NCBI GenBank assembly: GCA_001724265.1
Contig: MEDY01000098.1
Span: 1 to 64,000, forward strand
Source: Rhizaria sp. SCN 62-66
Lineage: Eukaryota
DNA: 64,000 nucleotides
Direction: 5' to 3'
Shown: piece after piece, positions 15,391-54,300 of the stretch
Position numbering within the stretch: the stretch's first letter is position 1
Layout: each line of letters opens with the position of its first letter
The notes under the pieces: model-generated
Seen by the model: the letters and a program-made list of their open reading frames with translations, nothing else
Told to the model about the DNA's origin: nothing
The model's database searches: none
Position numbers and translations under genes: made by a program

Positions 15391-16596
15391 TTACTTATCA
15401 CCGGCCAAAGCAGTCCAGTCAGCAATGAGCGCCGCCAGCTTTCCTGAGGCGCGGCTGAAAATCTCAGTGCGAGTGGCGGGCAGAAACTGGCCGAATGTAA
15501 CGGCGTTTGAGGCACCGAGGATCGTCTGCGACATACCTTTCAGCCCGTCGTTGTTCATGAGTGCTGCGAGCGTGCAGAGCAGCATGCCCCAGTCGTGTTG
15601 CGGTGTTGCAGTGGTAGTCAGCGCTGTCGTTGTGAGATGGAGACTGGGTGTCGTTGCGCGGATGGGCATGTTCTCGGGACAGGCAGCGCTGAAGTCGCCC
15701 AGCTCCCAAACACGGTTCATGCGGATGAAGATGTTGGCGGGTTTGATGTCCATGTGGATGATGTTCTTGCCGTGCAAAAAAGCAAGCGCGTCGCCGATGG
15801 GACGGATCAAGTCGGCGAGTGTGTCATCGTTGATGGGGGAGAAAGTCGCTGCAGTCCTTGGGTAGTGATGCATCACGAGGCCGGTCTTGGGAAAGTCCTT
15901 GTTGATAAGATTGCCAACGATCTTGTTTGCTGAGGGGGTCATAATCTCATTCGAGAAAAGCTTGGCATGCGAGGAGTGTTGCTCACATCGGACGAGGTGA
16001 GTGGAAGTGGACTCGAGGCGCGCGACCCTCAACTCCATGGATGCGTTATAAAGATGGTGCGCCGAGCTAGCAGTAGGATAGGGAATATCCTCGTCAGGGG
16101 TGGGGATGAACTTGATGACCCAGGGAAATCCAGTGGACTTGTCCATGCCCATCATGATGCGTGGGTCCTCTTCGTCAAGCGGGCTACTAAGAGAAATGTG
16201 CGTCTCCTTCGTGAAGAAAAAGCGGGAGGTAGTATGGGCCCTCAATACCATATTGGTATAGCGGGCCTTAAGACGTGACACGAGGGCATCTGTGACATCG
16301 AACCCATAGAACGAAAACAGAAGCTCCTCCGCATCATTCTCCGACATCTCTGGTTGATGTGTGAGTTGGCGAATGTGGCCTCGCGTTGTCACCTTAAGAA
16401 GAGGTTGGGGCTAGTGACGATGAGAGATCTGCTCACGTCGGCATTGGGTGCAGTAGACAAGACCATCTTCGAAGAGAGTGAAATTCTTGTTGAGTATACC
16501 ATTCGTGACGCTGTCATCGGTCACGCGAACAGTGTAGGAACTGGCGACGCCGCGGTGGGCAAGCTCCTCGTAAGAGTATGAGCAGTACTACGACAT
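15391..16596 (-). CDS. Atypical Ser/Thr kinase K1 (401 aa if two in-frame TAGs are read as sense)
   Basis: VIK, MELRVA, HMDIKPAN, DFS and HDW motifs. The frame upstream of the tracked ORF (VRVTDDSVTNGILNKNFT...YCTQCR) aligns with the N-terminus of paralog K2, through TAG at 16411-16413 and 16588-16590 to ATG 16596. TAA stop. Confidence 0.8.
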
Positions 16597-17001
16597 TTCG
16601 AGAACCTCTAAGTAAAATGTGGGGGAAGTAGACGACAAATCGATGAGCGACTTTGATTTCACGGAGAACACGAGTGAGGTAATCCCTCATCGCGCTCATA
16701 GATATTATTGAGCCAAACACCACGGAGATGTGGAGGTCCGAAACATCGTCTTTATGGCAGTCGCGTCGAACAGTAGTCATCAGCTTACCGAAAAAAATAT
16801 CCGTCGATCGCCGATCTGTCGTCGATCGATCGGTCGAAGAACCGCAATGAACGAAACAGAAGACGATCAAAGTCGACAAAGCCCTTTTTGCGTCTCCATA
16901 TAGCAAATGTCGCCGGTCATCATGTATATGTTTCTTGATTTGTGTGCTTTCGTTGCCTTCTCATTGAATCTGTCGCCTTTTTTTGCTTGTAGGTTCGATC
17001 G

Positions 17002-18330: not shown

Positions 18331-18648
18331 ATCTACGTGTCACCCCGCTCTCAAGTTACTTTTTTGTGTGAGCACACCGATGCAAGGCACGAGAGGGCGT
18401 TTTTGCATTCTGCGCCAAAGCGTCTGGCTGGGGAACCACAGCGCTGTGTACACTCAGTAGAACGTGACTGCGAGTCTGACGCTCATCGTCACAGAATATA
18501 TTGCTTGGTACCGCAAAGCGTAGTGACTGCGATTGCCTTTTCACGCTTGTGTGTGGGTGCAGTACGCGGGATCTGTACCTCAAACCAGCCTTGGACGTCA
18601 CTGGCTTCCACTTTGCGTCCTAGTAGTGGGCCGTAGTGCTTGGTTATG

Positions 18649-18726
18649 GCCGGCGTGCCTGCAAGCAGAAAGTTAAGTTGTGAGGGCCACCTCACAACTT
18701 AGCTTCCTGCTTGCAGGCACGCTGGC
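18649..18726. repeat. 37-bp inverted repeat with 4-nt spacer (long hairpin)
   Basis: Arms 18649-18685 and 18690-18726 are reverse complements at 34 of 37 positions. Confidence 0.92.
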
Positions 18727-19206
18727 AAAGTGAGATATGAACGCTCCTGGTCTTGATCTTCGGTGTGAAGGTTGTTGTGTCAATATTAACGGTGGCTGGC
18801 GTCATTGCTGACCGACCACCAGAGAACTGGCCCAGGCCAGTTCTCCAGCGGTCCACGACCAGATGTAAATGTATCAAGGAGGGACTTGATGTGGGTGTTG
18901 CGTGCTGACTCAAGCGATGTGCAGTGCAGAAGTACGTGCTCTGCTCACGGTATCTCACGGCTCCTGCGCGCTGGGTCAATTCTGCATGATATCTCGTTTA
19001 TAACTTTGATGTTGCCATACAGTTCTTGAGATATTGAAAAAGTACAGCTAGATATAATATATATTAAATAAAAACGTATGTATACGGCAGTAACGAGTAT
19101 TTGATTTGTTATCCTTTCAATAATCAGTCGATCCGACAAGTTCTGTTACTCTGGCACGAGCGGCGTTACCACATGTCGTAATCGACACCCACTTCGCATA
19201 GGCGCT

Positions 19207-21381: not shown

Positions 21382-21924
21382 ACCTGAAGGGGTGAAGCGG
21401 CGACGGGTCTTCGGCCAATAAAGCATGCGAGGCAAAGAAGAGTCATAAGCAAGGGAGTTTGGGGGAGCACGACAAAACGATTGGATATGATGCGCTTCCT
21501 GATCGTCAAACATGCCCATCTAAATATATAATATACAAAAGCACAATGACTATCTAGATTTCAGTCGTGCAGTTAACTTGACGCGACTAAACGATCATAA
21601 AAAGTCACGCTGCATCCGTGACTCGATGAATCCCACGTTGCTCATGTGTCGGAGAAGATGAATCATCTCAATGACAACAGGCGTTTCAACAGATACAACA
21701 CTCGCTTAAATGGAATTGGAAATGACAACAGGTAAAATATGCGCACGGATCGACGGTAAAGTGGATAATGTTTGTTTTGTGTATCGTCTAACCACAGTAA
21801 AGAAGCTTTGCGATCACATCAGCAGCACTCACCTTGCCGTGCGTGCCTCAAAGGGCGACACGGTTGTGAGTCACTAATAAAACACGTATCGTCGCGCGGT
21901 GTTGAAGTTTGACAAACAAACAAC

Positions 21925-22031
21925 TTACGCGGCGATGACGCCGGAAGCCTTAATGACGACAGGCTTGATGGGGGCATCACGGGCGTTGACGGGGTTCTTC
22001 TCGATCTTGGTGACGATGTCCATGCCCTTGA

Positions 22032-22065
<34 letters not shown>

Positions 22066-23293: not shown

Positions 23294-26200
23294 ATGCTGT
23301 CCCGCTCTTCTGCTTCCGTCTCGAAACCCCTGCGCTCCATGCTGGCGCGCACCACCACCGCTGCCGCCGGTGCAGCTGCGAAGCTCGGTGCCGCCGCCTC
23401 TGCTGGCAGCGCCGCCGCGTCGCCGCTCGCCTCCGCGCTGCGCCCCATTGCCACGACGGCCGCGTCCCGCGCCGGCGCGCCCTCGCTTTTCTCCGCTCGC
23501 GCTCTGCCCGCCGTCTCTGCCTCGCTGTCCCGCCCCGTCTCCGTCGCCGCCCTCGCCTCCTCTGCCAGCACTGCCAGCGCTGCCGGCGCCGCGACGACGG
23601 GCGCTGCCGTGGCGACGGCCCCGTCCCGCGGCGTCGCGCTGGGCCGCATGGGCGCGAGCACGGCCGAGGAGCTCCGCGCGATGCGCAACGCGAACCTGAT
23701 GAAGTATTGCGTTGATTTGACTGCGATGGCCCGCGAGCACAAGCTTGACCCCGTGATCGGCCGCGAGGACGAGCTCCGCCGCATCATCGAGGTGCTCTCG
23801 CGCAGGCGCAAGAATTCCGTCGCGATTCTTGGCGAGCCAGGCACTGGGTACGTTTTCCTCTCATATTAATAACGCTCTCAACTGTGCTGAACTCCATCTA
23901 TGCCTTGCTGTTGTAAGCAATATCTTTTGACTCCGAACTTCGCTCTCACATTTTTTGACTGTTGCCTGCTCTTTGTGCGGTTGCTTTATTTTATTTTTTT
24001 TGTGATACGACAGTAAGACGAGTTTGCTTGAGGGCCTTGCGCAGCGCATCGTCGCCGACGAAGTCCCCGAGTCGATCAAGGGCAAGCGCGTTCTGATGCT
24101 CGACCTTCCCGGTCTCATCGCCGGCACGGGCGTGCGCGGTGAGTTCGAGTCCCGCCTCAAGTCCGTCATCAAGGAAGTCGAGGAAGCCGGTGACGTGATT
24201 CTCTTTGTCGACGAGATGCACATGCTCGTCGGCGCCGGCCGTGCGGATGGCGCCATGGACGCGGCCAACATTCTCAAGCCTTCGCTCGCTCGCGGCACGT
24301 TCCAGTTCTGCGGCGCCACCACGCTGGCCGAGTACAAGGTGATCGAGAAGGACGGCGCGATGGCCCGCCGCTTCCAGCCCGTCTACGTCTCCGAGCCCTC
24401 GGTCGAGGACACGGTGTCGATCCTGCGCGGTCTCAAGGACAAGTACGAGCTGCACCACAAGGTGACCATCACCGACGCCGCCGTCGTTGCCGCTGCCGTG
24501 TACGCGAAGCGCTACTTCACCGAACGCAAGCTGCCCGACTCTGCGATCGACCTGCTCGACGAAGCCGCGTCTCGTCTGTGCATGCAGCTGGAGAGCAAAC
24601 CTGACGTCATCGCTTCGCTCGAGCGCGTCATCCTCACCAAGAAGATCGAGATCGAGGCTCTGGCGCGCGAGGACGATCCCGCCGCGGTGGCACGGCGCAA
24701 GAACCTTGTCCGCCGGCTCCAGCGCGATGAGCGCCGGCTGGCGGACCTGATGGAGGTGTGGAGCCGCGAGAAGGGCCGCCGCGAAGAGCTGGCGCGCGCC
24801 AAGGAAGCGCTCGAGAAGGCCAAGGTCGACCTCCAGCAGGCACTCCAGAACGGCGACTTTGCCGGTGCCGGTAAGCTCAAGTATAACGTGCTGCCGGAGC
24901 TCGAGCGCTCGCTCGCGGCGGCCAAAGCGGCGGCTGAGACGCAGGCCTCCGTCGTCGACACGCACGTGCCTGAGGCCGAGGTTGTCGGCGAGGACGGACG
25001 CACGACTGTGAGCAAGAAGAAGGCGCATCTCAGCGAGGAAGTGCTTAAGCACGTGCTGCTCGCCGAGTCAGTCTCTGACGACGACATCGCACAGGTACGT
25101 TCACAACTCGACTAACACTAACTTGTTTGAATCATGTCTATCTCGTTATCTTACTACTACTTTGTATAAATCGTACAACGCAGTAGCTCACGCTTGGTCT
25201 TTGTGCTAACAAACGTTGCTTCATTTTTTTAGGTTGTCGCGCGCCACACTGGCATCCCCGTCGCGAAGCTCATGCTCAAGGAACGCGAGAAGCTTCTTCA
25301 GCTCGAGGACGTTCTCTCGCAGCGCGTCGTCGGTCAGGACGACGCCATCGCGGCCGTGGCCAACGCGATCCGTATCTCGCGCGCCGGTCTCCACCCGCAC
25401 AACCGGCCGCAGGGCGTGTTTATGCTTCTCGGGCCCTCCGGCGTGGGTAAGACTGAGCTCGCCAAGACGGTCGCCGACGCGCTGTACGAGGGCGCGCTGC
25501 TGCGCATCGATATGAGCGAGTATATGGAGCAGCACTCGGTCTCCCGTCTGCTCGGCGCCGCGCCCGGTCTAATCGGCTACGGCGAAGGTGGGCAGCTGAC
25601 TGAGGCAGTGCGGCGCCGGCCGTTCCAGGTCGTGCTGCTAGACGAGGTCGAGAAGGCCCACCGTGAGATTACCAACATCTTGCTCCAGGTCTTCGATGAG
25701 GGCCACTTGACCGACTCGATGGGGCACAAGGTCGACTTCCGCAACACCATCGTCATCCTGACCTCGAACCTCGGTGCGGCCGATCTGGCGCACGACGAGT
25801 CACTGCCGCAGGAGACGCGCGCGGACGTCATGCGTTCCGCCGCGCGTTCGCACTTCGCGCCCGAGTTCATCAACCGTTTAGATGACCTGATCGTGTTCCG
25901 CCCGCTTACCCGCGAGTCGATGCGTCCCATCGCGGACATCCAGCTCAAGGCCGTGTCTGGCATGCTCGCCGGCAAGCGCGTGCGCCTGACTGCCACGGAC
26001 GCGGCGCGCGAGTGGATTGCTGAGGCTGGGTTCGACCCGCAGTACGGCGCGCGCCCGCTCAAGCGCGTGGTGCACACAGCCGTACTCGAGCCGCTGTCGC
26101 GCGCGCTGCTGTCGGGCGCGGTGACCGAGAGCTCGCACGTGCGCGTGGGCACGCAGGCTGAGTATGACGCCGGCCAGCTGCCGGGGGCGCTGCTCAACGT

Positions 26201-27062: not shown

Positions 27063-28643
27063 ATGCTCCCTGGCGTGTTCGACGTGTATATTCCCGCCAC
27101 AACACTGCCTAACAATGTGCTCGCCCTGGACCACTTTGTCGCGCATTACTTTGGCGCCTCTGAGCGGCAGCTCTACGCCAACAGCACAACATTGCAAAGC
27201 GTCTCCGTCAACATGCACTTCGATCGTCGCGCTGGTGCCGGTGCCGCACCTACAGTGATTAAATGCGTCACTGCTAACACGCAAGAACTTGCAACTTTGT
27301 GCCGCGAGTGGTCCATTGGGCGTTATCTTTCTCTTTGCTCGCACCCGTGCCTGATGCAGCCCGTCTTTGGCTCGATCGTCACCCTCCAGGAGCAGTCGCA
27401 GCCACAAGCACCAGTGCAACACTCTGGGCGCGTCGCTGAACTCACCATCTCCACTGACGCAGCGCCTACGCGAACGTTTTCCGCACCGCGCAGCCCAACT
27501 AGTCCCCGCACCCGCGCTGTCGCCGCCGCCGAGGCAGCCGCCGCAGCGGCTGCGGCCCAAGCCCTCGCCTAGTCCAGTGTCTTTGCAGCCACCGGTGAGT
27601 AGACAAACCATCGCATGGTTCTGGCGTCGCGGTATGCGGGCGCCAACTTTATGGCACGTACTGACCTGTTGCCGGCCGTGCTGCCTCAGGAGCCGCCGCC
27701 GCCGCGCACTGAACTCAACGTCGCCGACGCACGCCGCCTCGTGAAGCGTTACACCGCGCTCCTCGACGTCTATTACACGGTCGACTTTCTGCACAACGGG
27801 CTGTTCGTGACGCACAACGACATCAAGTTTGACAACGTCTCCGTTGATGCGGAGCGTGAGGACCGTGTCACGCTCATCGACTTCGGCGTCACCTCGTCCG
27901 TTTGCCCCGTGCCGCCGCCTGCGCACCCACACAGCCGGGACCATGCCCAGTATGCTGCTGCTGTGGCGGCGGCGGCCCTAAGCCAGGAGCAGATGGCGCA
28001 TGACTCTCAGGCTGTGGCTGCGTACGACCACGCGCTCGCGCTGCATATGCGTGCCCAGGCCTTCTTCAAGGTCGCCAAGGATTATGGGCCGGCCGCGAGC
28101 GACGCCCATGCCGAAGCGATCGCTCCAATGCTAGCGGAAATGACTCACTACACAGACGTTGATGGTGCCGTGCCACTGAGCGCACGCGACATCTCGCGAT
28201 CGCTGCCTGATCTTACCTCGCTCGTGACCGCGGAGAAGTCCTACAGTGTTGTCGGTACACCTAAGTACATGTCTTGGCAACTGTTGCAAACAGACGAGAA
28301 AAAGCACATAGGCGGGCACAATGCGTTTAAGTCGGATGTGTACGCGCTGGGTGTGATGCTGTTTGTGGTCGCTCTTGGTGGCGAGCCCTACTCGATGACA
28401 CGTCAGGAAGACCGTCCGTTGGCGCTGCAGTTTCTCACGGCGTACGGTGCGCGTAAGCTGTTGGAGGCGATGCAGCGCAGCTCCGTGATGCTGCCGGCGG
28501 AAATCGACGCACTGGAAGGCATGCTAAACCCGGACGAGAATCTGCGGTGGGGCATCAAGCAGGCTATCACCGCGGTCGAGACTGCCGTTGTGGAGCTCAT
28601 GAACACTCTGGCTGCGGCTGGGATTGACGTCCAGGGACAGTGA
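27063..28643 (+). CDS. Atypical non-RD Ser/Thr kinase KA (526 aa if two in-frame TAGs are read as sense)
   Basis: The N-lobe (VIK, CREWS, HPCLMQ) in ORF 27006-27572 and the C-lobe (HNDIKFDN, LIDFG, GTPKYMS, KSDVYALG) in ORF 27615-28643 share one frame, separated only by TAG 27570-27572 and TAG 27600-27602. Colinear with KB from the MLP start. TGA stop. Confidence 0.85.
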
Positions 28644-34980: not shown

Positions 34981-35058
<78 letters not shown>

Positions 35059-38043: not shown

Positions 38044-41000
38044 TCAGTAGGGCTCCGCGTTGACGACTCGCAGTGCACCATTGCGCTCAACAGCCATGAA
38101 GACACGCATCTCCACTTCCCTCGCTTCACTCTCGCTCGACATCACACCGTTATCGTCATCATCGTCTGTAGCATAATCGCCGCCGTTGTTGTTACTGATG
38201 TGTGCAAGACACTGTGCCCTTGCGTCATCTGCGGAAGGGTGCAGACCGTAGAAAGTGTACTCGCGCCGCACGGGCCGCACAAACACAACCTGCGGCGGCT
38301 CAAGCACCAGCATCGTCTGCGCTTGCTGCTGTTGTGCTGACGACTGCGCGAATTGAGCTTGCTTTTGGTACCGCGTGCGAGCGAGTGCTGCTGCCGCGGT
38401 CGATTGCTCTCCAGCGATTACTGCAGCAGCGCGCGCCAACGCCCCGCGCGCAACACCTGCTCCCGCGGCCGCCACCGCCGCGCCCCTGCCCAGCCCACTG
38501 CTGCTGTCGCTGCTAGAGTCGTTACTAATGCAATTCGCACTAGCGGCCCAGGGGCAGTCGGCGACGGTGAGCGGGCGCGCGGTGGGCACGAGCGCGGCGG
38601 CGGCGTCAAAGAGACTGGCAACGCGGCGCCGCTCAAGCCACGCTGCGAGCGCGAGCGGGGTCAGCCGGCCGCCGGCCACCGCCGCAGTCACCGCGGCCAC
38701 TGCGGCCGCGGTCGAGCTCGACGACAAGCCGGCCGCGGGGGCCGCTGCGGCCGCGGGGACAGGCAGCGGGAGCGAGGGCGGGAGTGGGACCGGTGCGGTG
38801 GCCGTGGCGGAGTTGAACGAGTGTCGCGCGAGCAGGCGGGAGACGGACGCTGAGGTGACTTGCGCAGAGGCACCGATGATGACGGCGGCGGCCTCGTCGT
38901 CGTCGGTCGCATGTGCACTCGAGTTGGCGCTCGATGTGGCGCTCAAGCCAACCTTACCGCCGCCGCCACGTTGCTGTGTCGCAGAGTCATGGCTTGAAGA
39001 CGAGCTGGAGCTCGAGCTTGCGATCGTGATCGATCCCGAGCTTGGGTTTCGTGAGTGCTTGCCGACGCTGTTGGAGTTGTTTGCGGCAATCGGCACGACG
39101 GGCACCAGAGAGAGAACGGTGTCGTCAGCAGCGGCCGAGGCGCTCTCGAGCGCGAGCAGCGCTGTCGGCCGCAGCAGCCGGTCGGCCAGCGCGGGACAGT
39201 CTGGGAACAGCTGCAGCAGTGATGCCCCGCGCGCGCACATAATCTGAATGTAGAAAAACACAATTAGACAACATAATTTGTAAAAAACATCAATGAAAAA
39301 ATGTCTTTTTGTTACTTATAACGTTTTACTCATCACGCTCAATATACTTAATATTATTCTGGCAAAGACAACGTACCTCTGCCTTCGCGAGCGCGTCTAC
39401 GGCGTTCTGGATGTCGAGCTCAGCCTCCTCACCCTCCAGGAACCTTTCCTCGCCATCAATCCCCCCGCGGTGCGCGGCCGCGTGCGCGGCGGACTGTGTG
39501 GTGGGGCTTGAGAGCGCGGCGACAAGCTGCTGCGCGTGCGACGGTGAGTGGCTGTGTGCGTAGCGCGCCCACGCGCTGGCTGCCGCGGCAAGCGGCGCCA
39601 CGGCCGCGGCCACGGCGGAGCGCACTTGCGGGATACCCAGGGCAAACGCAACCATCGAGCACGGCGGAACAGCGGTACTGGTGGCCGAGGCAGTCACTGC
39701 GCAAGTGTGGGTGCGACTGTGAGCGGCGGAAGTGACCGTGGGCGCGGGGGCAACGAGGATCGGAGTGCCGATGGGCAGTGACGTCACCGCGAGCAGTCGC
39801 GCCGCCACAGCCGCAGGCGGCGCGGGCACAAGAACAGACTTGGCACCTGCAGAGGCCTCTGCAGTCGCCGTTGACTGTGACGGTAGAGTTGACGCGGCGA
39901 CAGTGATCGGCGCCATCGCGCGGGGTGGGAGATCCAGAGGCATGTAGGTCAGCAGCGGGTCTGTGCATGACAGCACGCCCAGCGCCGCGTCGCCTGCCAG
40001 CGCCAGCAGTGCGGCCAGAAGCGCGCCCAGTGGCAGCGACGTCTGTAAATTTAGAAAACATCAAAACAAGATCACAAGCATCCATTAGACATTAGAATGA
40101 GTAAAAACAAAGTGCACTTTCGCAAAAACGTCGAAGTAGTGTCGGAGATGCGTACCATGTAGTGCAAGGCCTTCTCGGCCTCCGCGACAGGCTCCCAGGC
40201 CTGCGCTCCAATAAGCGCAAGCGCACCAGATGTCGCAACTGCCGCGAGGGCTTCCGGTGCAACCGCGGTCAACGGCGGTGCAGAGGCCCACAGCAGCGGG
40301 TGCTCCGTGAGTGCGGCGGCGGGCACGGCGAGGCGCCAGAGCCGCAACCAGGGGCTGGAAGCGACACGCATGCGCGGCGACACGAAGCGCACAGACTGCG
40401 TTGCTAACTCGTGCGCCAATGACTGCAAGAAACAAAGGTGAACAAATCGGCATGAGTTAACAACAAGAAAAAAGTCGAATCGGAAAATACGAACATGCCG
40501 CAATAGATAATGTCAACCTCAAGCATAATGTGCTGACAAATGTTAATATAGCGACGTACGTCTTCCTCTGCTGCAGCGGCCGTTGCAGCGAACTGCGGCG
40601 GCATGGTGGGCGCGTTAAGCGCCGCCAGCGCCTGCCAGGGCCCCGCGCTGGGCGCGGCTGCGAGAACTGAGGCGAGCGCCCTGTCACCGCCCTCCATGCT
40701 CAGACCTTCGTCGTACACGCCCAGACACGCCGCGCACCATGCCGTAGCCCCTGCTGAGTCAGCAGGTGACTGTGAGCCTGAAACAGATGACTGCGAGCTG
40801 GGACTGGTGCTGGTGAAGGCGCCGCAGCGGCACGCCAAGGCGTCCGCCAGCGAGTGACCGTAAGCACCACTCCCAGTCGCAGCGGGGTGGCTGTGAGCAG
40901 GCGCGCTTAGCGTGGGCAGTCCGGCGGCGGGAACCAACAGATCTTGCGGTGAGCACCAGCGCAGGAAGTCGGCAAACACGCAGCCCGGATTCGCAGCCTT

Positions 41001-44000
41001 GAAAGCGCTCATATCGCGCAGCAGTTCCGCCTCATCAGCGCCAATCGGGCCCAGCGACTGCGTCAACCGCGACTGCGGCTGCTGCTGCTGCGGGGACGTC
41101 GCGGCGGCGTCTGCAGCGGCGATCGCGGTGAGCGCGGCGACGTCGCGCTCAGCGAGGGAGAACGCCGTGACTGGCCGCGGCGGGGGCAGCGCGGGTACCC
41201 ACAGCGGGCGCGACGGGAACGCGCACAGTGCCGCCACGCCGCCAGTGAGCGAAACAGCGCTACTATTAGTTCTAGCAGTGACAGAGCCGCTGTTGTTGTT
41301 GTTGGCGGGTATGGGGATGACTGGGAGCAGTGCGGCGCGGCCACGGGGCAGCGCGCGGGGGAAGCAAGGGGTGTCGGTCGCGATCAACGCGACGGTTGGC
41401 GCAGAGGACGCTGAGGCAGACGCGGAAGCAACGACGGCTGCAGCGGCAGCAGTCGACGCAGCAGCGGCAGCATTGTTCGCTGCGGTAACGGCCTCAGATG
41501 AAGCAGAAGCAGCGGCGGAGACAGAAGCTGCGGGCAAGGTAGGCAGCGGGGAGGTGGGAGACATGGGGTCAAAGAACTCTTCATCGTCTTCACTGTCAGC
41601 ATCAGTACCATTGGAATTCGCCAAACTAGCCCCGTTCTCAGCGCTCTTGCTCGCGGCCGCATTATTCGCACTCGTAGCAGCAACAGCGGCACTAAGTGCG
41701 GCATTCGCGCTCGCACTATGCTTGCGTCCACCTTCGCCGTCGCCGTCAGAGCCTGCTTCGGAGCCTGAATCGAGGTCGATGTCCGCGTCAGCATCGGCGG
41801 CAGGCCGCCGCACAAAGCGCAGCAACGCCTCGGTACTGTCGTCGTCGTAGTCGATGTCTTCATCGTTCGCGTTAGCAGCGGCGTTGGCACGGGCGCTCGT
41901 ATTGGTGTTAGATCTCCTGCTCGCACCTACCGCCATCTTAGTCACTTGCTGCGGCTATGCTGGCTGCTGTGCGCTCGGAGACAGCTTTTGCGGAGCCGCG
42001 TCAACGCCCACTGGCGCCATCATCGCTGCCGCATCACTGCCACCGCCCTCTTTCCGTTGACGCTGACCAGCGTGACCATGGCCGTGGCTGTGACCGCGCG
42101 CGCCGCTCGTGCGCGCTGCAGCCATGGCCCTGGCAGCCTTGGCCGCAGACCCGGCGGCCGCGGCACGGACAGCAGCCACACCCAACGCCGTCTCAAGCGC
42201 GCCCCCGCCGCCCGCAGTCTCTGTCTGCGCGCCGCTTCCCGCCGCCGTGCGGGCAGCCAGACGCGTGCGGCGGCGCGTCTCCGCGACGGCGTCGGCGATC
42301 GCCGACACAGCGGAGGACAGCGCAGCGGCGGGCGAGTCGGGCGCGGCGGCCGCGGTGCTGGCGGCGTAGGCGGGGCCAAACGGGGAGCAGAGCGCGGTCG
42401 CACACGCGCTTGCGGCGGTCATCCCCGAGTGATGTGTCGGTGCAGAGCTTGTGGTGTTGGGGGCCGTAAGACCGCGGAGCTGCAGAACGTCGGCAACGCC
42501 GCAAATCGCGACAACGCCAGAATCAGCTCCCGTAGCAGCGCCCGCACCAGCGATGCCAGCGGCCCTGGAAGTGTGGGTCGGAAGCATAGCTGTGGCGGCA
42601 GCAATGTCAGGCAGCATCGTTGACGGAAAAAGGGGCGCATGCGGCAGCGGGACGCCGGCGCGTGCGTAGCTTGTAAGCTCCGAAGTTAAGCCGCACCATA
42701 GCGCAGCAAGGCGCCGCAGCGAGAGCCCGCCCCCGCCAACGATCTGCTTATCAGCCGGATCATCGTCATCGTCGCTTTCATCGTCTTCAATATCACTGCC
42801 GTTAGGATTCGCGGAGTCAAGCCCAGCGTCGCCGTCGGGATTCGGCTCAGTGCTGTGTGCGCCGCTGCTGCCGTGACCAGTCACGGGCTTGGGGACGGAC
42901 TTCGCGCGGCGCGTGCGCGTCGGCGTGACTAAGTACCTGGCATCGAGCCGAAGTACTTCGAGCACCCAGCGAGTCAATACTCCTCCGTACGGCGCCACAG
43001 GCGCCCACAGCTGTCCCGTCCATCCGCGCTGCCGCGCTTGCACCGCCGTCAAGCCAGTCGCGACACCCGCCTCGCCCATAGTAGCTCCCGCAGCGGGGAC
43101 CGTGAGCGGGGGAACCTGGGCAAGGCTCGCGTGCACAGTGCCGTATCCCGCGGCAGGCGCGGCTAACAGCAGACGCGCAAGTGCGCTCTGAGATGCCGGG
43201 AGGCCAACCGCAGCAAGTAATACCGGTGACAAACCGTGCGAAGCCGCCACAGAGTCGGCGGCGTCGGTACCGTCGTCCGACTGTGATGGCGAAGACTGAG
43301 GCAGCGGCCAGTTGTCGAGAAACACAGCGGCCGTGGCGCGCGCGACTTCCTGCGGTCCCGGTGCGACACCTAGCGCCGTGTCGAGCCGCACCACGGCCAG
43401 CGCGTCGCTCACGGTCGCGCTCACGGTCGCGCCGACAGTTGCGCCCACAGTCGCGGACAGAGTCGATGCGGCGCGCGCGGTCAGCGATGACAGACGCGAA
43501 CCGACGCTGGCGGAACTCGCGCTGTGCGGCTGCTGCTGGCGCTGCTGCGGAGTGAGGCTGTCACTGTCGTCGTTGTTATAATCACCCCCGTCACTGTCCT
43601 CGCCCTCGGCTTCGCTGGAGCTCGAGCTGGCAAGAGAAGGCATGTCACCACTGTTGATGCTGAACATGAAGTTGCTGCTATCAGCCTTGCTACTGCTGCA
43701 GTCCTTGCTCCTCTTGCTCTTAGCGGTCTTCTTGGAGACGTGATCGCGGCTACTCGCGGCACTACTACTGCCGCGCGGCTCGGCTTGCTGTTGCTGCTGC
43801 TCCTGCTCCTGCAACTTCTACTGCTGGCGCTGCTGGCGCTGCGTCCAGTTGGTCTTGGCCCTCTTGGCCGCCACCAGGGCGCGCGCGCCCGCAGCCACGT
43901 CGGCGGCCGGCACCGCGAGCAGGCCCCACGCGCGCGCGGCGCGCAGCAGCGGCGGCAGCGCGCACAGTGCGGTCGCAAGCGCCGGCGGGTGCGGGGCGGC

Positions 44001-46616
44001 GCGGGGCCGCCGACCGCGCGCGCCCGCTGCGCCCGCGCTGCCGTCGCCGTCGGCATCGTCGTCGTCGCTGTTGCTGTCGCTGCCGTTGTCACTGTCGTCG
44101 TCGTCGCTGCTGCCGGTGTCGTCGGCGCTGTTACTGTTGTTGCTGCTCCCGTTGCTATTGCTGCTGCCCGTCTTGGTCCAGTGCGCTGTCAGCAGCCACA
44201 CAGGAGCCTCAGTCGCCGTCCTCGCGCCGCCGCCTGTCGCGCTCGACGTCGCACTGGCGGCGCTCATGCTCGCAGTCGACGCAGCGCCCGCCTCTGCAAA
44301 AGAGCCTGACGCGCTGTTGTAGTAATGCGGGCTGTTGTACATGCCGTGAGCTGTTCCGGGCACGAACCGCGGCGCCGCGGCGGCGTGCAGCGACACGGCA
44401 GCAAGCGGGTCCGTCAACGGGCCCCACGACGCCGAGAGCGTGAGCGCGCGGTCCGCCGCCGCCGGGTCGCGCCACAGCGACGCCGCGGGCGCGAACGGGG
44501 GCAGGCGCCGCGACGCAGCGGCCGCGGCCGCGGCGGGCCAGGCGGACTGCGCGCGCGACAGCAGCGGGGACTGCAAGAGCGCGAGCGACTGGGCGAGCGA
44601 GTGCGCGGGCTGCAGCAGCGTGGCCGCGGCGGCGTCGGCGGCGGCGCCCGCGCGCGCCTCGGTCTCGGTCGTTGCCGTAGGGAACAGGAGCGACCGCAGC
44701 AGCGGCGGCGGCAGCAGCAGTGGGCGCCGCGCGCGCAAGCGCGTCGCGACGGGGAGATACCGCGCTGCCTCGGTGTCGGTGAGAGTGCCGGACGCGCCGC
44801 GCTTGCCCGCCTTGCCGCTGCTGCTCCCGCCGTTGGTGGGCCGCTTGCGGCTCAATGCAGCAGCGGTGGCGGCAGCGGTGTGTGCGGCGACGGACGACGC
44901 AAGCGCGGCATTCGCAGCCGCACTCGTCCCGGAGCTAGCGTGGGACTGAGAGCTGTTAGTTGCAGAGTGAAATAAAGCAACGGCGGAGTCCGCAGCGGCC
45001 GCAGTAGTCATGTAGGCATTCTCAGTAAAAGAGACAGAATACACAGAGCTTTCAACAATCACGACGTCACTCGTCGTGTCTGCGGAAATAGCGTTGAGCG
45101 ACTGCGAATGCAACTGGTTTTGCTGTGTGCGACGCTGCTTTGCAAGCATTGCGGCAAAAATAGCTGTCAAATCAGCAACGTCATTGCCACTGCCTGCAAC
45201 ACTCTTGTGCTTGCTGCTGCTTGACTGGGGCGGCGGCCCGACAAGCCTGACCGTGAGCTGTGCCGGCGCCACTGCCGCGGGCGACACAATCGCACCAAAG
45301 CTAAGCCGCATCCAGGGCTGACCCAGCGGTGTGAGCAGCGCAAGCGGCACGGGCCACAGCGGCTCCGCGCCCAGGCCTCGCTTGCCGGAGCTATGCGCAC
45401 TGGCGGGGTTGGTGCCGGCGGCGGGGACGACGAGAGACCGCTCTGCCGCGAACGCGGCTGTGGTGGCCAGGGAGAGCGCAGACAGCAGCGCCAGAGCTAC
45501 GCCGCGCTCGGCCTCGGTCGGCGCGCCGCCCCGCGCAGCACCGCGCGACCGGGACCGCGAGTGTGCGCGCGAGTGCGAGTGCGCGTGCGGCTGTTGGGCG
45601 GCGAGCTGTTGTGAGGACGACAGTGCGTTTGCGAGCGACTGCGAGCGCAGCAGACGGCGCAAGCGGCGCGAAGGAGTGAGCGTGAGCGTGCAGTGCGCGC
45701 CCAGCCACCGCGCGGCGTCGGGAGCGTCTCGGGGGTGCGCCGCGCTGCCCACGCCCACGTTCACGGTCACACCGCTCGCGCCGTCGCTCCTGCCGCTGCC
45801 GTCGTCGCGGCTGCTGCTGCTGTGGCTGTGGCTCACGGTCACCACGGGGACTGCGCTGGGCAGGGCAGGGCCGTGGACAGCGCCGCCGCTCGAGCTACTG
45901 TGGCTGCTGACAGAGGCCGTCGCAGCCGCGAGCGAAGCAGAGCCCTTGTGGCTGCGGTCGGCTTGGTTGCTGCTTGCGCTGTTGTTGTCGACCACGTGCT
46001 TGAGGCCGTGAAAGACGGGGGACTCGCTGCTGGCCCACAGCGACAGCACCACGCTCGCGCCCGCGCCCCACGCGCGGCCCTTAGAGGACCCTGCCCCGCT
46101 CCGCGCAGTGATGCTGCCATTGCCGCTGATGTTCGTGATCGAGTCGGGAGCGAAAGCAGCCGCGAAGCCGGGAGGAAGCGGGATGCGTCGAGAGCGCTGA
46201 ATCGACGTCAGAAACGCGTCGCTCGACGTCGCCGTGCTTGAGCCTGACGTCTGTGACTGCGCCTTGGGGTTGGCAGCACCGAAGCCGCTGTGGGCGGAAG
46301 AGAGACGGCCGGATGGGACGAGGAAGGCTCCCCACTGCCTCAGGGCGCGCTCGACGTCGGTGGCAAGGCGTTCGAAAGGCGTTACGGAGGAAAAGTCGTG
46401 GATCTCAAAAGGCGTGGTCGCTGCAGAGGATGGCGCAGGCGCGGGGGTGAAAGCCGGCGGCGCAGAGACGGGAGCCGTCGCGGCAGGGGCAGGGGGAACA
46501 GGGTGAATCGAAGCAGCAGAGGGAGCGCTGGTGAACACGGGGGGCGCAGATGCCGCTGAGAAGGGCGGGGATAGCGGCAGCAAGGACGCTAATGCTGTTG
46601 GGGAGACGCCCTCCAT
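38044..46616 (-). CDS. RAB3GAP1: Rab3 GTPase-activating protein catalytic subunit-like (~2729 aa); exons 46616-40560, 40422-40156, 40042-39377, 39243-38044; two in-frame TAGs in exon 1
   Basis: N-terminal FEIHDFSSVTPFERLATDVE, central LAALWCGLTSEL, catalytic LLRDMSAFKAANPGCVFADFLRWCSP, SPRM..W..W, EAEKALHYM and C-terminal REYTF...MRVFM, in the expected order. Three tracked ORFs are joined in one frame by TAG 43818-43820 and TAG 41955-41957. All exon lengths are multiples of 3. TGA stop. Confidence 0.85.
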
Positions 46617-48062
46617 AGTGCTGCAAGAGGTTAAGGTTAGGAGTGAGAGAGCAACCGAGAAGAGAGGTGTGCCTCGTGTCCTGAGAAGATAAGAGAGTCT
46701 GGAAAGAGAAAACATAGGATAGCAAGAGACAGGGTCCGTCAATAGGAGTGTTAAGCAAATGCTCGGATAAAATAGCCCCAAGAAATCATGATTTCAAATT
46801 ACCCTCTCATGCAATCAACTCACGCTGCATTCAAGCTTATTTCAGCTGAATCACAGATCACTGACTCTGGATCGACCACAAACGGAAAGTGCTCCTGCAA
46901 GGAACACTCGTTTGAGGTCATTTTCAAGTCATATCGTCATGTTACTAATATCTCTTAGGGTTAAAAATGCTTATTAATGCGTCTTTTTACATTGATAAAC
47001 ATGATATCTAAGAAAATACATTTCTGGAAAAAGTCGTTTCAGTTTGGCCGATATTTTTATCGATCGTCGGAAATCACGATTGTTCAAGTTGCGGAGGAGA
47101 AAATTGAATTTGACGTAGTTATCGACGAAAAATCGTTTTATTCAAAAGTAGCACAACTATTAATTACAATAAATTGTTTCATACAACATACAGCCGGATT
47201 ATCTCTATAACTTTTAAGTTGTGCGAGATACACGCTTGATTGGGAGTTTTACAGTCAAGTGACTGGCGAAGTGACAGGCGAAGTCATAAATATAATTCTT
47301 AGTCATGTAGAAAGGTTACATTGTGTATCAGTGTATCATATGAGTCAAGTGTTTCTTGCGCGTCTGCGCGCTATATTCTAGGTTACCGCTTCAACAGCGG
47401 CTGGTTGGCTATGTAGAAAACGCTTCTAGCGACACTTGCAGCGCACACAGTGAGTTAGCGTGCTAGAGCGATCGAGTATTACATTTGAAGCACACAGCAC
47501 GCGTTGGAAAAGGGGTTACTGTGACACACCCAACAAAGAGTGGGGCGATTACGAGGAAGACGAAATGGCGATGCGATAAATAGAGCAGCAGAGCGAAGCG
47601 AAAGCAGAGAGGTAGAATAAACATATCGAAAAGAAAAAGCAATCAAACAAACGAAATGAAACTAAGAGTATTCTAAATGAATGACACAGATTAACACAAC
47701 GTGAAATATTAGACATTACTGATTACGATATATACAGTACAGTCGTGCGACACACAAAACACAGTTAAAACAAGGCAGTAGTGCTGCGGCGATGATGTAC
47801 AGTATAGGGAAGAAGGCAAACATGGTTGTGGCCACCAATGAGGCGACACACATCACAGGAAGGGTGATGAACAAGAACAGGAAAATACAGGAATAGTGGA
47901 TGGATTTCCGAAATATACAAAATAAACACACGAATATCCGCTTTCACGTTTGTCGTTGCAAAAACAACTGCGCGTGATGAACGACAAACGTAAACAAAAA
48001 ATACGGATGATACGGTATGGCGAATACGTTCGCTGTTAGAAGGAACTTAAACTTAATCGCGG

Positions 48063-48268: not shown

Positions 48269-48302
<34 letters not shown>

Positions 48303-51300
48303 CTGCTGCTGCTGCGACACCGACAGAGAGAGAGACACCTGCCCGCGCGGCGCCTGCTGCTGTTGCTGCGGCTGCGGCGGCGGCTGGCGCGGGGTGGGCA
48401 GCGGCAGCGCCGTCAGCGGGCCCTGACCGAAGATGTCGCGGCTCTCGTTGCCGCTGTCGTCGCCCTGTTCGTCGCTGTCGCTGTCGACCACAAGCACGCC
48501 CACGCTGCCGCTGCTCGTATTCGCGGCGACAGTTGCCACCTTCTTGCCGTTGCCGTTGCTGTCGCCGGTGGTGTGACCGTTGCGGCTCTGGCTCTGGCTT
48601 CGGCTCTGGGAGCGGCTGTCGCTATCGCGTAGGCCATGCTGCGACTGCGCCTGCTGTGCTTGCGCCTGCGACACTGATCGCGACGGCGCCTGCGATTGTA
48701 CTCGCGACATCGGCGGCGACTGCCCCGACCCCTGCGTCAGCAACGCGGCCGTCGCTGCGTCGTACCCAAGCGCGCCGTTCACGCCGGCCAGCCCGGCGCC
48801 GAAGTTGCTACTGGCGTTGGCGAACGTCGGCGGTAACAGCTTGTCGTCGCTCACATCATCCGCGACGTAGGCGAAGACGGCCGCCACGAACGCGGCCAGC
48901 ACTGGGGACGCCGCTGCCGTCGCCGACCCTGCGGCCGAGGACGGGGACGCGGGCGTGGGCGGCTGGTAGCCATAGCCGTGCGAGTAGCCGCCGTAGCCGC
49001 TCCCCGCGTAGTTACTATAGGCGCCGGAAACGGACGTTGAGGCCGAGGCCGAGGACGCCACGCGCGCGGCCGTCGCGGCCGCAGTGACGCGCGGCTCGGC
49101 GGCGTCGAGGGACAGGTCCTGGCGCGCGGCGAGAGCGGAGAAGAAGGCGGAGAACTGAGCCGGCGACAGCGGCTGCGAGGTTGCCTGCTCGAGGGTCTCG
49201 AATGCCATCTGATATGATTATGAAAAGAACAAAAGAGAACAAAAAAAGAGTTAGAGGTGAAGTTACTATGTGCATAGAAAGAATATAAGGATGCTCATGT
49301 GATAGTCAAGATTCATATTGGCATGTTTCCATTTGCGCGATAAATATATTTAAACAAAGTAACAAAGTATGTTTTGTGAGCCTGTCGTACCTTGACGTGA
49401 GCGAGACCGGCGCGCGCGATGAGATAGCTCATGTTGCCCACACTCGCCTGATTCGGCGGCGGCGGCAAGCGCAAAAAGAACTCGAGCCCGACCTTGACGG
49501 CAAAGTCCGCAAACCCCAGCGCGGGCACGCCCGACGAGGCAGCCAATCCGCCGCCGGCGCCGCCGCCGCCGGTGGTTCCGTTGGCGGCCGCGGCGAGTGC
49601 CAGCGCGCGGTCGAGCGCGGCGCCAAAGACGGGGCGCACGCGAAGCTGCGCCGCGGGCTGACCGGCGTAGGCGAGCGACAGCAGCGCGTCGCCGAGGCGC
49701 TCGACGGGCACCACCAGCGGCGGCTGCAGCGCCAGCGACGACTGCAACTGCGACGGCCAGGCGTTATTGCCGCCGCCGTTGTTGGTGAGGTTGTTGCGCG
49801 GCGTGTTGGCGCTGCTGTTGAACGCGAACGTGAAGCCCGCCGGCTTGCCCCCGTTGGAGGGCGAGAACGTGGCCGAACGCGGCGACACGGCGGAAGTCAA
49901 GCCGCCCCATTGGTTCGAAGTAAGGCCGGCACGGGGCGACCCGGGAGTGCTGCCGCTGTTGCCGCCATCGCCGTAGCTGCTGATGTTGCTGCCGCTGCCG
50001 CCAGCGCTGCTAGTGGCAAGCGCCGCGGCGAGGAAAGTCTTGCGGATAACGCTGTACGCGTGCTTGATCGTGTCGTACTGGTCGCCGATCGCGCCCGCGG
50101 CCAGCGCAAGCGCCGAGTCCCACCGCGCGGTCACCGCGGCGGCCGCGGAGGCGGCGGCAGCGGCGGTGGCTTCGGCGGACTGGCCGCTGCCGCCGCCGCC
50201 CGCGCCCAGGCCGAGCCCGACGCCGAAGCCCGCGCCCGCGCCCGCCCCAGAGCTGGAGCCACTACTGCCCCACGACTTGCGCCCGCGGCCGCGCCCGCCG
50301 TGGCTAGACGTCGGCCGCCCGCCGCCGCTGCCGCCGTGACCGTGGCCGTGGCCGTGTGAGTTGGGCCCGTAGCCGTTGGCGGCCAGCAGCAGTGCGCTGC
50401 CGGAGCCAGCGCCAACGGCCGCGGACCGCGAGTTGCGCCTGCTGCCGCTACCCGCGCCCATGCCGCCGCCGCCACCACCGCCCATGCTGTTGTTTGTGAG
50501 GCTGCCGCGGTTCGCGCCGCCGCGCCCAGCGCCGCCGGGCGTCGCCGGTGCTGCTTGTGCTGCTTGTGCTGCGGCCGAGAGACCGAGCAGCGCGGAGGCC
50601 GAGGCGCGGGCCGCGGCGGCGGCGCTGGCCGGGGTCACGCCCAGCGCGTCCGCGAGCAAGCGACTGCGACCGCCACCGGCAGCCTGCTGCTGCTGGAGCT
50701 GCTGCTGTTGTTGCTGGAGCTGGAGCCACTGCGCGGTGGGCTCGTCGTCACCGTGGCCGCCGTGGCCGCCGCGGTTGCGGCTCGGCGCGCGACTGCCGTG
50801 CGCGGTGCTCAGCGGCGTGCTGTTTGCACTGCCGTACACGCTGTGCGCGGTGCCGTACGCACCGAGCGCGCCCATCTGCCCGTGCTGGCCGTGGCCGCCG
50901 TGGCCGCCGCCATCGGCTGCCGCGCCCCAGCGGCCGCGCTTCGCAGGACTCTGCTGCGCCTGCTGCTGGTGGGCCAGCGCGAGGTGCGCGGCCAGGATCG
51001 AGCTGGATGTCAGCGAGAGCTCGGGTGAGAAGACGTGCTCGAAGCTGTTGCTGCTGCCGCCTGGTGCAGTCCCGTTGTAAGCGTTGTTGTACGCAGGGTC
51101 GTTGTACGCGTTGTTGTTGTTATTGTTGCGACTTTGAGCAGCAGCGTTTGTGGGGCCAGAGGTGTTATTGACAATGACCGTAGCGACAGCGGCGGCGGCG
51201 CGCGCAGCGTTGGCGGCGGCGCGCGGTGGCAGCGGGGCGACTGTGGGCTGCGCGTTAGGCGCAGTATGCTTACCACGAGCACTGCTGCTTCCACTCGCAC

Positions 51301-54300
51301 CAGCAGCACCAGCAACAGCGGAGGAATTAGCGTTGCCGTTGCCGCTGCTGTTACTGTTCGCGTTCGTATTGGAGCCTCCGGCCACAGCGCCCACGGTCGG
51401 CGCGGGCCTGTGCTGACCAGCAGAGCCGTCGCTCACACTCACTCCAGAACCAGCGTTGTAATTGTGATGATTATTGTTATTATTCGCTGATCCGGTGGCA
51501 CGGCCACTGCGCTGCTGCGAGATCGCGGGCAGCGTGGGCACAGGAGCAGAGTTGCTCTGACCAGCAGCAGCTTCATTGTAAGCAGGGCCTGAGCGTTGCG
51601 GCTTTGACTGTGCCTGCGACTGTGAATGAGACGGATCTTGCTGCCACGCTCCATCTTGTTGTTGCTGTTGCTGTTGCTGTTGGTGCCACATCTGCTGCTG
51701 TTGCCACTATTGGTCTTGGCCATACTGCTGCTGCTGTTGCTGCTGCTGTTGTTGTGCTTGCTGCGATTGGGATTGTGACTGAGATTGCGCGGTGTTTCTG
51801 GCGGCGGTCTGCGTCAGCGCCCGTGACAGCGACTGCGAGCGTGATTGTGAGAGTGACTGTGAGCGCGCCTGCATGTTGCTCGCATCCATAGCATCAAGCA
51901 ATGCCCGGAGACGGCGTGCACAGGCCTTGCACTCGCCACACATGCACCCAGCGCCATTCCCGTTGCCAACGCCCGCATTGGCTCCGTCGTAGCGGTCATC
52001 GTCACCGTTATCGTCGCCGTTGCTGTTGCTGTCGTCGCCGCACTCGTCGCGCTCGAGTGCGACTGCGGAGTGACCGTGGGCAGCGGGGGTGCGCTGGTGC
52101 CCGTGGGCGCGCGCACGAGGGCCGCCGCGCGAGGGCGTGGCTAGGGACAGCAGACCCTTGGAAGGGTCGAATGTCGCGCTGGCGCCAGACCAACGGTCAG
52201 TTGCACCGGCACCAGCAGTTCCGCCAGCACTTTTATTGTAGTGCGCGTTCCCACCAGCAGGAGCATACTCGCCATCGTTGTTGTTGGTGTTGTCGCCATA
52301 GTCGTCGCCGTAGTAGTCAACGTCATAACCAGTAGCGCCCTTGTTGCTGTTGTTGCTGAAGTGACGGTGGTGATGACTCTGCGCACCAGCGCCAGCGCCA
52401 GAATTAGCGCCGCCAGCAGCGCCTGCAACGCCAGTCTTATTGGCGTTGATCGCAGTGTGACTCGGGGTGTTGGCGAGTCCTCCTGTGCGATTGCTTCCAC
52501 GGGCGCCGCCATTGCCACCGGCACTAGCAGTGGCACCGGCACCAGCACCAGAAGAAGCTGCGGCGTTGATGCGGGGACTCGCGCTAAAGCCGGCACCACC
52601 CACAGTGATCGCCGCTGCAGCGCCAGTGCCGCTGATCACCGCGCCCGGGCTGCTGTTGCTGCCCACACCACCAGTGGCGTTACTGCGCCTGCCTGAGGCC
52701 GTGCCGCCAGTGGGGAGGTTCGTGTTGGCGCCGGCTGCCACAGTTGCGGACTGCGCTGAGGCTGAAGCTGCGCCAGAGCCAGAGGCAGCGGCGACCGAGA
52801 ACGACGGTAGCGGCCGGCGGCGCGAGGGCGACTCAGCGGCCCCGTGGCTAGCAGTTCCGCCGTATGTGAACACACCGCGGACGCGGGGCGTGTGTGCGCC
52901 AGGCGCGAGGCCATGACTCGCGTTCGCGCCGGGGGTTTGCCTCTGCGGCCCACGGTCACTGCGGCCTTTGGCGCCACTGAAACCGCCACTGCCATTGCCA
53001 TTGAAGCTGTTGCTGGCGCTGCTGTTGGAATAGTCATAGTCGTTGTCGCCGTCGTCGTAACCGGCGTCATCGCCGCCGTCGTCTTGATAGTCCTCGAACT
53101 GGCCATCGTTGCCACCGGCTTTGTTACTGGCGAGCAGACTGGAGCCCGGCGCCCTGATGGTGAGGCCGTGAAGCCGCGCCGCCAGCCCCGCCGCACCGCC
53201 CGCATTGCCAGCAACACCACCGCTCGCAGTGGCGCTAGCAGAACCAGTGTTTCCGTTCACATTCGCACTCATGTTCGAGCTGCTGCTGCTGCTGTTGTTG
53301 TTGTAGTTGTTGTTGCCGTTGTTATTCGGGGTGCCAGATGCGCGCATGCGAGACGCCAGCAACGAAGTCGACTGCGCCTGCGACGGGGTCAGCGGCTGCA
53401 ACAGAGCGCCGTTCACTGTACCAGCGCCAATGTTTGTGCCAGAGACAATGTTGGCGCCAGAGTTAGCGCCAGCGGCAGAGGCGGAGAGTGGGCCAGTGAC
53501 CGGGCTCATGGCCGTGGCGGCGACTGCGTGCGCTGTGGCCGTGTGCGCGGCGACGGCGCTGGCGCTGGCGCGGGTGAGATTGCGCAGCGCCGCGATCGGG
53601 CCCAGTCCACCCGCGCCGGCCTTCGCCGCCGCGGCCGAGGACGGCGACGGGGCGGTGCCCGAGGACGCGGAGTGCGGAGATTGGGGAGGCGCGAGGTGCG
53701 GCAAACCGTGATGCTGCTGCTGTTGTTGCTGCTGTTGCTGTTGCTGTTGGTGAGCACCACCGAGCTTCCCTCTGTCGCCTTCAGCCTGGCTTTGGCTATT
53801 GCTGGAGGTGTTTTTGCCGTGCTTAGCAGCGGTGGCCACAGCGTCCGCGATGAATCTTCCGGTCAGCGCCAGAGCCGCGGCCGCAGTGCCAATGAGACAG
53901 CCGGACGTGGCGCTTGATGTCGCGCTCGCCGCGGTCGTGTCGTTCGCGGTCTTCTCATCGTCATGGCCGTTGCTGTCGCCACCGAGGAGTTCGCCACTGC
54001 CGGGCTGTTGCTGCCCAGGAGCGCGGCTCTTGCCTTGATTCACACCCACAGTGTACGCGCCACCAGAGCTGTTACTGCTGTTCTGAGCGTTATTGTTGTA
54101 GTCGAAGTCGGAGTACATCTCATACGGCACCGCGCCGCCCTCGCCCGCAGCGCCGCCACTGTGCCCGTGGCCGTTTTGGCCCGGCCCCTGCGGGTGCGAA
54201 TGCCGGTGACTGGCGCGCACCACCGGCCGGCTCCTCTGCACACCGCCGCCGTTGCCCCTCCCGTCCGCGAGCCGCAAACGGGCGACAAGCGGCACAAGCC

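Follow-up and report, generated by a model that had tools for sequence, protein, structure and literature searches.

Does UAG still mean stop in the nuclear genes of the organism deposited as Rhizaria sp. SCN 62-66? The question is raised by a stretch of 64,000 nucleotides (nt) of this assembly (GCA_001724265.1, contig MEDY01000098.1, positions 1 to 64,000; hereafter the window), in which four predicted genes contain TAG triplets and read on in the same frame behind them. These are two protein kinase genes, named K1 and KA, a Rab3GAP1-like gene and a giant orphan open reading frame (ORF). A first-pass annotation had proposed that UAG is read here as an amino acid, probably Gln, with UAA and UGA kept as stop codons. 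Our analysis sustains the first part of that interpretation and leaves the Gln part to sequence context: UAG appears to be a rare sense codon, with UAA and UGA as the only remaining terminators, and we put the probability of this reading at roughly 0.8. We favour a sense meaning because homology extends to either side of the TAGs, the frame is continuous, no intron signature is found at the sites and none of 21 gene ends is TAG.

The triplets were read directly from the coding strands, and all seven TAGs were found where they had been reported (Table 1). The flanking translations claimed for them matched at the sites, with Gln no more than four codons away in five cases out of seven, and the base after the TAG was C, T, T, A, C, A and T in coordinate order, which bears out the claim that no read-through context is shared. 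Across 19 coding segments (14,585 codons) these seven were the in-frame TAGs counted, all within K1, KA, the Rab3GAP1-like gene and the giant ORF, and zero in-frame TAA or TGA was present; 14 other ORFs carried no in-frame TAG across 7,638 codons. The four TAG-bearing genes themselves need no frameshift, and contain no TAA or TGA, across ~6,300 codons, as had also been claimed. No TAG was found in the genes for adaptin, ClpB, phosphoglycerate kinase (PGK), cyclophilin, NDUFV2, RPL22e and FtsH, in keeping with the earlier statement that ribosomal, chaperone and respiratory genes are free of it.

Table 1. TAG-bearing genes, their in-frame TAGs, TAG-free paralogs and introns in the window
Feature	Coordinates	Strand	Basis
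K1, orphan protein kinase, 401 codons, stop TAA, two in-frame TAGs	15394..16596	-	Pfam Pkinase match; K2 homology
TAG, K1 third codon (M-S-TAG)	16588..16590	-	start placed by analogy with K2 start; weakest of the seven sites
TAG between K1 conserved N-terminal block and kinase part	16411..16413	-	K1/K2 alignment
K2, TAG-free K1 paralog, divergently transcribed, stop TAA	17002..18327	+	K1/K2 alignment
KA, protein kinase, 526 codons, stop TGA, two in-frame TAGs	27063..28640	+	Pfam Pkinase on C-terminal half; KB homology
TAG in KA-specific insertion, kinase N-lobe	27570..27572	+	KA/KB alignment
TAG in KA-specific insertion, overlaps GTGAGT string	27600..27602	+	KA sequence; KA/KB alignment
KB, TAG-free KA paralog in tandem, stop TAA	29821..31287	+	KA/KB alignment
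Rab3GAP1-like gene; exons 46715-40560, 40422-40156, 40042-39329; stop TAA 39328-39326	39329..46715	-	homology, intron signature
TAG, codon 966, Gln/Glu-rich stretch	43818..43820	-	frame best-scoring on both sides
TAG, codon 1587, upstream of catalytic motif	41955..41957	-	frame best-scoring; motifs on either side
Giant orphan ORF, ~3,370 codons, stop TGA	49316..59425	-	codon score 488.7 over the ORF; continuous frame
TAG in poly-Gln stretch of giant ORF; 797 more open codons after	51707..51709	-	frame continuity
Intron	6701-6870	+	defined by homology
Intron	25095-25232	+	defined by homology
Intron (Rab3GAP1-like gene), 137 nt	40559-40423	-	defined by homology
Intron (Rab3GAP1-like gene)	40155-40043	-	defined by homology

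Frame continuity was assessed with a codon log-likelihood score trained on TAG-free ORFs. Across all seven TAGs the gene frame outscored both other frames of the same strand in every interval, the lone exception being one 300-nt interval (51859) in a CAA/CAG run just upstream of TAG 51707, and the score was undiminished after the TAGs. Three of the TAGs lie in CAG-rich runs and four outside them.

In the K1/K2 pair, homology extends across a TAG. The two kinases are 53% identical over their full length, and both sides of TAG 16411 align. Upstream of this TAG, and so between the two TAGs of K1, sits an N-terminal CxxC block of 47 codons that aligns without gaps with K2 (26/47 identical, 55%). 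The sole ATG upstream of the block is at 16596, two codons ahead of the first TAG, and the block has no ATG of its own; thus under the standard code it would be untranslatable. Opposite TAG 16411, K2 has Glu (GAG), at the edge of a gap in the alignment. A search with K1 among 5.8 billion proteins matched only the K1 and K2 of the window, and a metagenome scan with the K1/K2 alignment returned only one weak relative and a Joint Genome Institute (JGI) metagenome contig (L001, 2.5 kb) that has K2 at 100% identity and stops short of the TAGs of K1. From the protein search the family looks lineage-specific.

KA and KB are 33% identical from a common MLP start to the C-terminus, both kinase halves included, and the KA gene frame is the best-scoring one throughout. 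For the Rab3GAP1-like gene, the human Rab3GAP1 chain (8vyb_A) aligns with an N-terminal FEIxDF...W motif (residues ~103-129) and with the catalytic motif (residues 1895-1927); TAGs 43818 and 41955 fall between the two motifs. Pfam Rab3-GTPase_cat matches the third segment of the gene, and nothing besides this family was found by Pfam on the TAG-flanked segments of the Rab3GAP1-like gene and the giant ORF. Beyond the catalytic motif come two normal introns and a final exon with TAA at its end. An extra TAG at 40404, which had not been listed by the first-pass annotation, occurs in the read-through frame, and removal of the 137-nt intron puts it out of frame. We also considered ORFs 41958-43817 and 40407-41954 as separate genes; this was rejected, as the Rab3GAP1 motifs are in the outer segments and there is no dip in GC content between the segments.

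Low-complexity Ala/Ser/Gly/Gln/Asn sequence makes up the giant ORF, in which Pfam found no family. A search with the last 330 residues had no match among 1.84 billion representatives, and an ESM Atlas search with both ends gave no usable match, so that a common known family for the two ends is unsupported. On either side of TAG 51707 there are polyA-RNA contigs from run X5 (49719-50027, 51089-51387, 54316-54700 and 58628-59248); support for one gene across this TAG consists of frame continuity, the open codons behind it and the flanking RNA. The codon score and the synonymous bias of strain differences described below suggest that the giant ORF is a real gene.

The termini of the genes tell the same story from the other side. 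The first-pass annotation had counted 19 ends, ten TAA and nine TGA, and never TAG; the count is now 21 (10 TAA and 11 TGA), and the absence of TAG holds (0/21). The ends agree with homology for adaptin (where the Pfam profile ends), PGK, cyclophilin, K1/K2 and KA/KB, and wherever an ORF of the window does have TAG at its end, it runs antisense or off-frame to the tallied genes. The share of TAG among stop codons is ~20% in bacteria and climbs with GC content at third codon positions across eukaryotes, according to the excerpted text of PMC9348620. If the share were 20% here, 0/21 would have p ~0.009.

All four introns of the window that are defined by homology start with GTACG[C/T] and end with YAG, are 113-170 nt long and have a GC content of 0.36-0.38 compared with ~0.6-0.7 for exons. 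This GTACG start together with AT-richness is a sharp signature, usable for gene modelling and for binning of the organism. Around the TAGs (60 nt on each side) the GC content is 0.50-0.70, and features of the window's introns are missing. As the GTACG/AT-rich signature was not found around any TAG, the TAGs should lie outside introns of the type seen in the window.

Coverage by public sequencing runs was also analysed. A Logan contig of run X3 spans 40368-45483 with 0 differences, both TAGs of the Rab3GAP1-like gene included, and a second contig of this run (50496-51719) likewise has 0 differences, with TAG 51707 ~10 nt from the contig end. PolyA-RNA contigs lie inside the Rab3GAP1-like gene as well as in the giant ORF, and the region 46.7-48.0 kb is without RNA cover, consistent with an intergenic spacer. 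Strain differences were counted from 40 listed of 105; 27 of those listed fall in the two large ORFs, where 13 are synonymous, 14 are at codon position 3 and only two are behind a TAG. This points to some purifying selection on both of these low-complexity ORFs. The second strain (run X4, 2025) is ~99% identical to the window, and its listed differences are densest in non-coding sequence: four are in the 137-nt intron 40423-40559, and the 1.2-kb spacer 46800-48000 has eight substitutions and two insertions.

Several observations weigh against a sense meaning of UAG. The sample is 64 kb and seven codons, none of them on a conserved column, and the TAG-bearing genes are all fast-evolving or low-complexity, the conserved genes named above (adaptin to FtsH) being TAG-free. 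Intact paralogs adjoin K1 and KA, which could therefore be dispensable copies. GC-rich frames stay open by chance: the antisense frame of KA is without TAA or TGA for 526 codons, and in the giant ORF, frames other than that of the gene are open for up to 489 codons. Six of the 21 tallied ends come from ORFs backed by codon score, whose 3' ends are unproven. That all seven stop-type codons in frame are TAG still stands, and it is less striking than had been claimed, with p ~0.025-0.04 (~0.03, and not 0.0005); with codons used as they are in the four genes, a random single-base change to a stop would yield TAG in 59-63% of cases, and the 7/7 result is therefore weak on its own. Run X3 is possibly a source of the window and hence non-independent, and none of the contigs listed from the second-strain run X4 or from the RNA runs X5 and X6 bridges a TAG, so that splicing, editing or a C/T polymorphism at these positions would be conceivable. 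In addition, a string GTGAGT...TACTGAC...CAG at 27595-27689 (95 nt), around TAG 27600, resembles an intron. The bias of nonsense changes towards TAG, the intact paralogs and the chance openness of GC-rich frames are what would speak for the standard code, under which the seven TAGs would be premature stops in decaying or dispensable genes, or fixed nonsense alleles, and the open frames behind them remnants. We regard this as quite unlikely: four of ~21 genes would be broken, three of them twice, yet the frames have acquired no frameshift, TAA or TGA in their ~6,300 codons. Moreover, the catalytic motif, two downstream introns and the last exon of the Rab3GAP1-like gene are intact behind both TAGs, the K1 block that could not be translated is as conserved as the whole protein (55% compared with 53%), the coding score does not decay past the TAGs, and the lack of TAG among the terminators would be left unexplained.

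A dual or leaky meaning, in which eRF1 still sees UAG while a suppressor tRNA or near-cognate reading lets some ribosomes pass, would make the window's code an ambiguous intermediate tolerated in weakly constrained genes. The extreme rarity of UAG (7/14,585 codons), its absence from every conserved gene and the nature of the affected genes, which encode paralogs or low-complexity proteins, agree with it, whereas the 0/21 TAG ends suggest that the terminator role has been abandoned, full-length Rab3GAP1 and K1 would each require two read-throughs (costly if decoding is inefficient), and no common read-through context follows the TAGs; we hold a leaky code to be unlikely. Removal of the TAGs from mRNA as part of atypical, GC-rich in-frame introns, or their change by U-to-C editing, seems very improbable. 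This reading could appeal to the RNA contigs, none of which among those listed covers a TAG, and to TAG 27600, which overlaps a textbook GTGAGT with TACTGAC and a CAG 95 nt downstream. However, 95 nt is not a multiple of three, and excision would put the two KB-homologous halves out of frame with each other and delete RYAGANF, a stretch aligned with VYAGFDL of KB; the candidate, which moreover neither starts with GTACG nor is AT-rich, was rejected. The four proven introns have both features, and the surroundings of every TAG differ from them. No canonical GT..AG joint was near a TAG among 15 listed of 318 joints, and we know of no nuclear U-to-C editing of such a kind. Consensus or assembly errors, such as C read as T, are the explanation to which we give the least credence. 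Run depth is low (contig depths ~5-8), three TAGs are in CAG-rich runs, and CAG to TAG is a single transition; on the other hand, the two X3 contigs reproduce 40368-45483 without differences and cover TAG 51707, four TAGs are not in CAG runs, and errors would neither spare all conserved genes nor explain the missing TAG terminators.

A sense meaning of UAG thus remains the reading that we prefer, and its workings can be sketched by analogy with other UAG-recoding eukaryotes. UAG would be read by a tRNA with anticodon CUA, one base from tRNA-Gln(CUG) or tRNA-Leu(CAA), and eRF1 would have a weakened recognition of the third-position G. The eRF1 changes reported for Iotanema and exLh concern the GTS, TASNIKS and YxCxxxF motifs and position 69 (human numbering). 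UAG may have been lost as a terminator and then have reappeared as a young or inefficiently decoded codon, which its rarity and its confinement to fast-evolving or low-complexity genes would fit. In the 64-kb window, ARAGORN found no tRNA gene and no Rfam family was detected.

Which amino acid UAG specifies was approached with a naive-Bayes model that takes in the eight residues around a site, and for which the window's own proteins served as both training and test data. At the TAGs the model gave Gln 19.0 nats, with His next (6.6); Trp had 5.0, Leu 0.7 and Ser -3.0. Resampled positions with a true residue other than Gln were seldom called Gln, and for no other residue did Gln rank among the three most frequent calls. 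Our best guess from this context is therefore that UAG would be Gln, in which case it would make up 7/641 Gln codons (~1%). Conversely, the CAG-rich surroundings may reflect the mutational origin of the TAGs (CAG to TAG) and not their meaning, and the only published rhizarian case, exLh, decodes UAG as Leu (PMC5304391, in excerpt). The first-pass annotation had conceded that no TAG falls at an invariant column, and we agree: 0/7 are on conserved columns in K1/K2, KA/KB and the conserved genes checked.

Whose code is this? The window is ~60% GC overall, with spacers richer in AT, and its eukaryotic genes include beta-adaptin, a ClpB/Hsp78-type chaperone, PGK, four divergent protein kinases, cyclophilin, an FtsH-like protease, RPL22e, the proteasome chaperone PAC4, the complex I subunit NDUFV2 and the Rab3GAP1-like gene. 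The stretch turns up in public runs of bioreactor, wastewater and activated-sludge metagenomes, and hence the organism is uncultured: it is a GC-rich, intron-bearing eukaryote of wastewater bioreactors. Its lineage was followed with two quick single-gene trees, thinly sampled for named taxa. The closest non-self protein to the beta-adaptin is 79% identical and unnamed, named matches being at 66-68%; in a maximum-likelihood tree the window fell within an environmental clade of 17 rows, sister (support of 99 by SH-aLRT, a Shimodaira–Hasegawa-like approximate likelihood-ratio test) to the rhizarian Lapot gusevi together with a single environmental row, and this clade with Lapot gusevi was separate from stramenopiles, plants and animals. 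For NDUFV2 the best named matches were Mataza, Paulinella, Amorphochlora, Cercozoa sp. M6MM and Nonionella, and a close relative known as a protein (P0129) is 78% identical. The window was placed inside a clade of 23 rows (support 95) that also holds Mataza, Amorphochlora and Paulinella. Stramenopiles, a ciliate, an amoebozoan, a fish and a red alga branched elsewhere, and the rows of Nonionella and Cercozoa sp. M6MM were likewise outside the clade, on long branches. Both trees group the organism with cercozoan Rhizaria, in line with the earlier view that it is neither a fornicate nor a ciliate, and the host lineage is probably a cercozoan rhizarian.

Some further observations were made with these markers and in the window at large. 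A EukProt sequence (P0133), 68% identical to the NDUFV2 of the window and filed under the dinoflagellate Yihiella yeosuensis, branches inside the environmental clade of the window. Dinoflagellates are not known to possess complex I. A related cercozoan, present as a contaminant or as prey, is the probable source of the sequence. A scan of prokaryote genome contigs with beta-adaptin matched only two unrelated genes, 54% and 35% identical to that of the window, on contigs of metagenome-assembled genomes titled Ferrimicrobium sp. (L003:4264-5911) and Dehalococcoidia bacterium (L004:5893-6891), respectively; both are eukaryotic contamination of prokaryote bins. In the window itself, the FtsH-like AAA/peptidase M41 protease is encoded at 635-3925 (-), and a long ORF at 434-3889 (+) runs antisense to this real gene; long antisense ORFs are frequent in the GC-rich sequence of the window.

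Few nuclear codes are known to split UAG from UAA, namely those of exLh, Iotanema, Scotinosphaera, Protocruzia, some phyllopharyngean ciliates and one oligohymenophorean (PMC5304391 and PMC11687900, both in excerpt), and such codes matter to the question of why reassignment usually takes both codons at once. In the open-access literature searched, there was no report of a UAG-sense code in Cercozoa beyond exLh, nor in wastewater protists. If true, a GC-rich cercozoan with very sparse UAG would be an independent data point and might show an early stage of reassignment, and the interest of the window would be moderate to high if the rest of the genome bears the code reading out. There is also a practical side: gene callers set to the standard or bacterial code split the genes of this organism at TAG, as in the database record of K1, a piece of 318 amino acids that starts at an internal ATG, and the genetic code should therefore be checked in eukaryotic bins from wastewater metagenomes.

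The sequence-level evidence used for published cases recurs in the window: homology continues in frame across UAG, UAG is not a terminator, and UAA and UGA do not occur in frame, with conserved columns excepted and with frame continuity standing in for homology across the TAG of the giant ORF. A code with UAG as sense and UAA and UGA as stops would resemble translation table 15 if UAG is Gln and table 16 if it is Leu. Of the known systems, Iotanema spirale (Fornicata) reads UAG as Gln and keeps UAA and UGA as stops; its UAG is scarce in transcripts, its meaning was shown on hyperconserved columns, and its eRF1 carries a T32G change, according to excerpts of PMC5304391. The window resembles it in recoding UAG only, in the scarcity of UAG and in Gln as the meaning favoured by context. 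Iotanema is an anaerobic metamonad, however, whereas the organism of the window has the complex I subunit NDUFV2 and groups with Cercozoa.

Among ciliates, UAG is Gln or Leu in phyllopharyngeans and Gln in Protocruzia tuzeti, with UAA kept as a stop (PMC11687900, in excerpt). Here too UAG is split from UAA, and the logic of the test was the same, with C-terminal alignments and the absence of UAG terminators; in contrast, the window is GC-rich, has conventional introns of 113-170 nt and does not group with the single ciliate of the NDUFV2 tree. The green alga Scotinosphaera, with UAG as Ser and UAA as a stop (as cited in the excerpted part of PMC11687900), is likewise a UAG-only reassignment outside ciliates, but it is of another lineage, and Ser scored -3.0 nats in our context model.

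The nearest parallel by lineage is exLh (Sainouroidea), from the bug Lygus hesperus, which shares the supergroup of the window's organism and probably its phylum, and in which UAG alone is recoded as well. In the excerpts of PMC5304391 its terminators are given as UAA in 56 cases, UGA in 15 and UAG never, and its UAG codons are abundant (384 in 71 genes) and stand at conserved Leu columns. Compared by description only, exLh has abundant UAG, Leu as its meaning and an insect host, whereas the window has 7 UAG in 14,585 codons, scores of 0.7 nats for Leu and 19.0 for Gln, and a wastewater source. It is conceivable, if somewhat doubtful, that the two represent independent rhizarian reassignments, the second one to Gln and caught at an early stage of codon capture in a free-living, GC-rich wastewater cercozoan, in which UAG would have gone as a terminator and come back only in weakly constrained genes, at ~1% of Gln codons. 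Set beside these systems, the code of the window, in which UAG is most likely a sense codon, would be a further case of a rare, already known type of code change.

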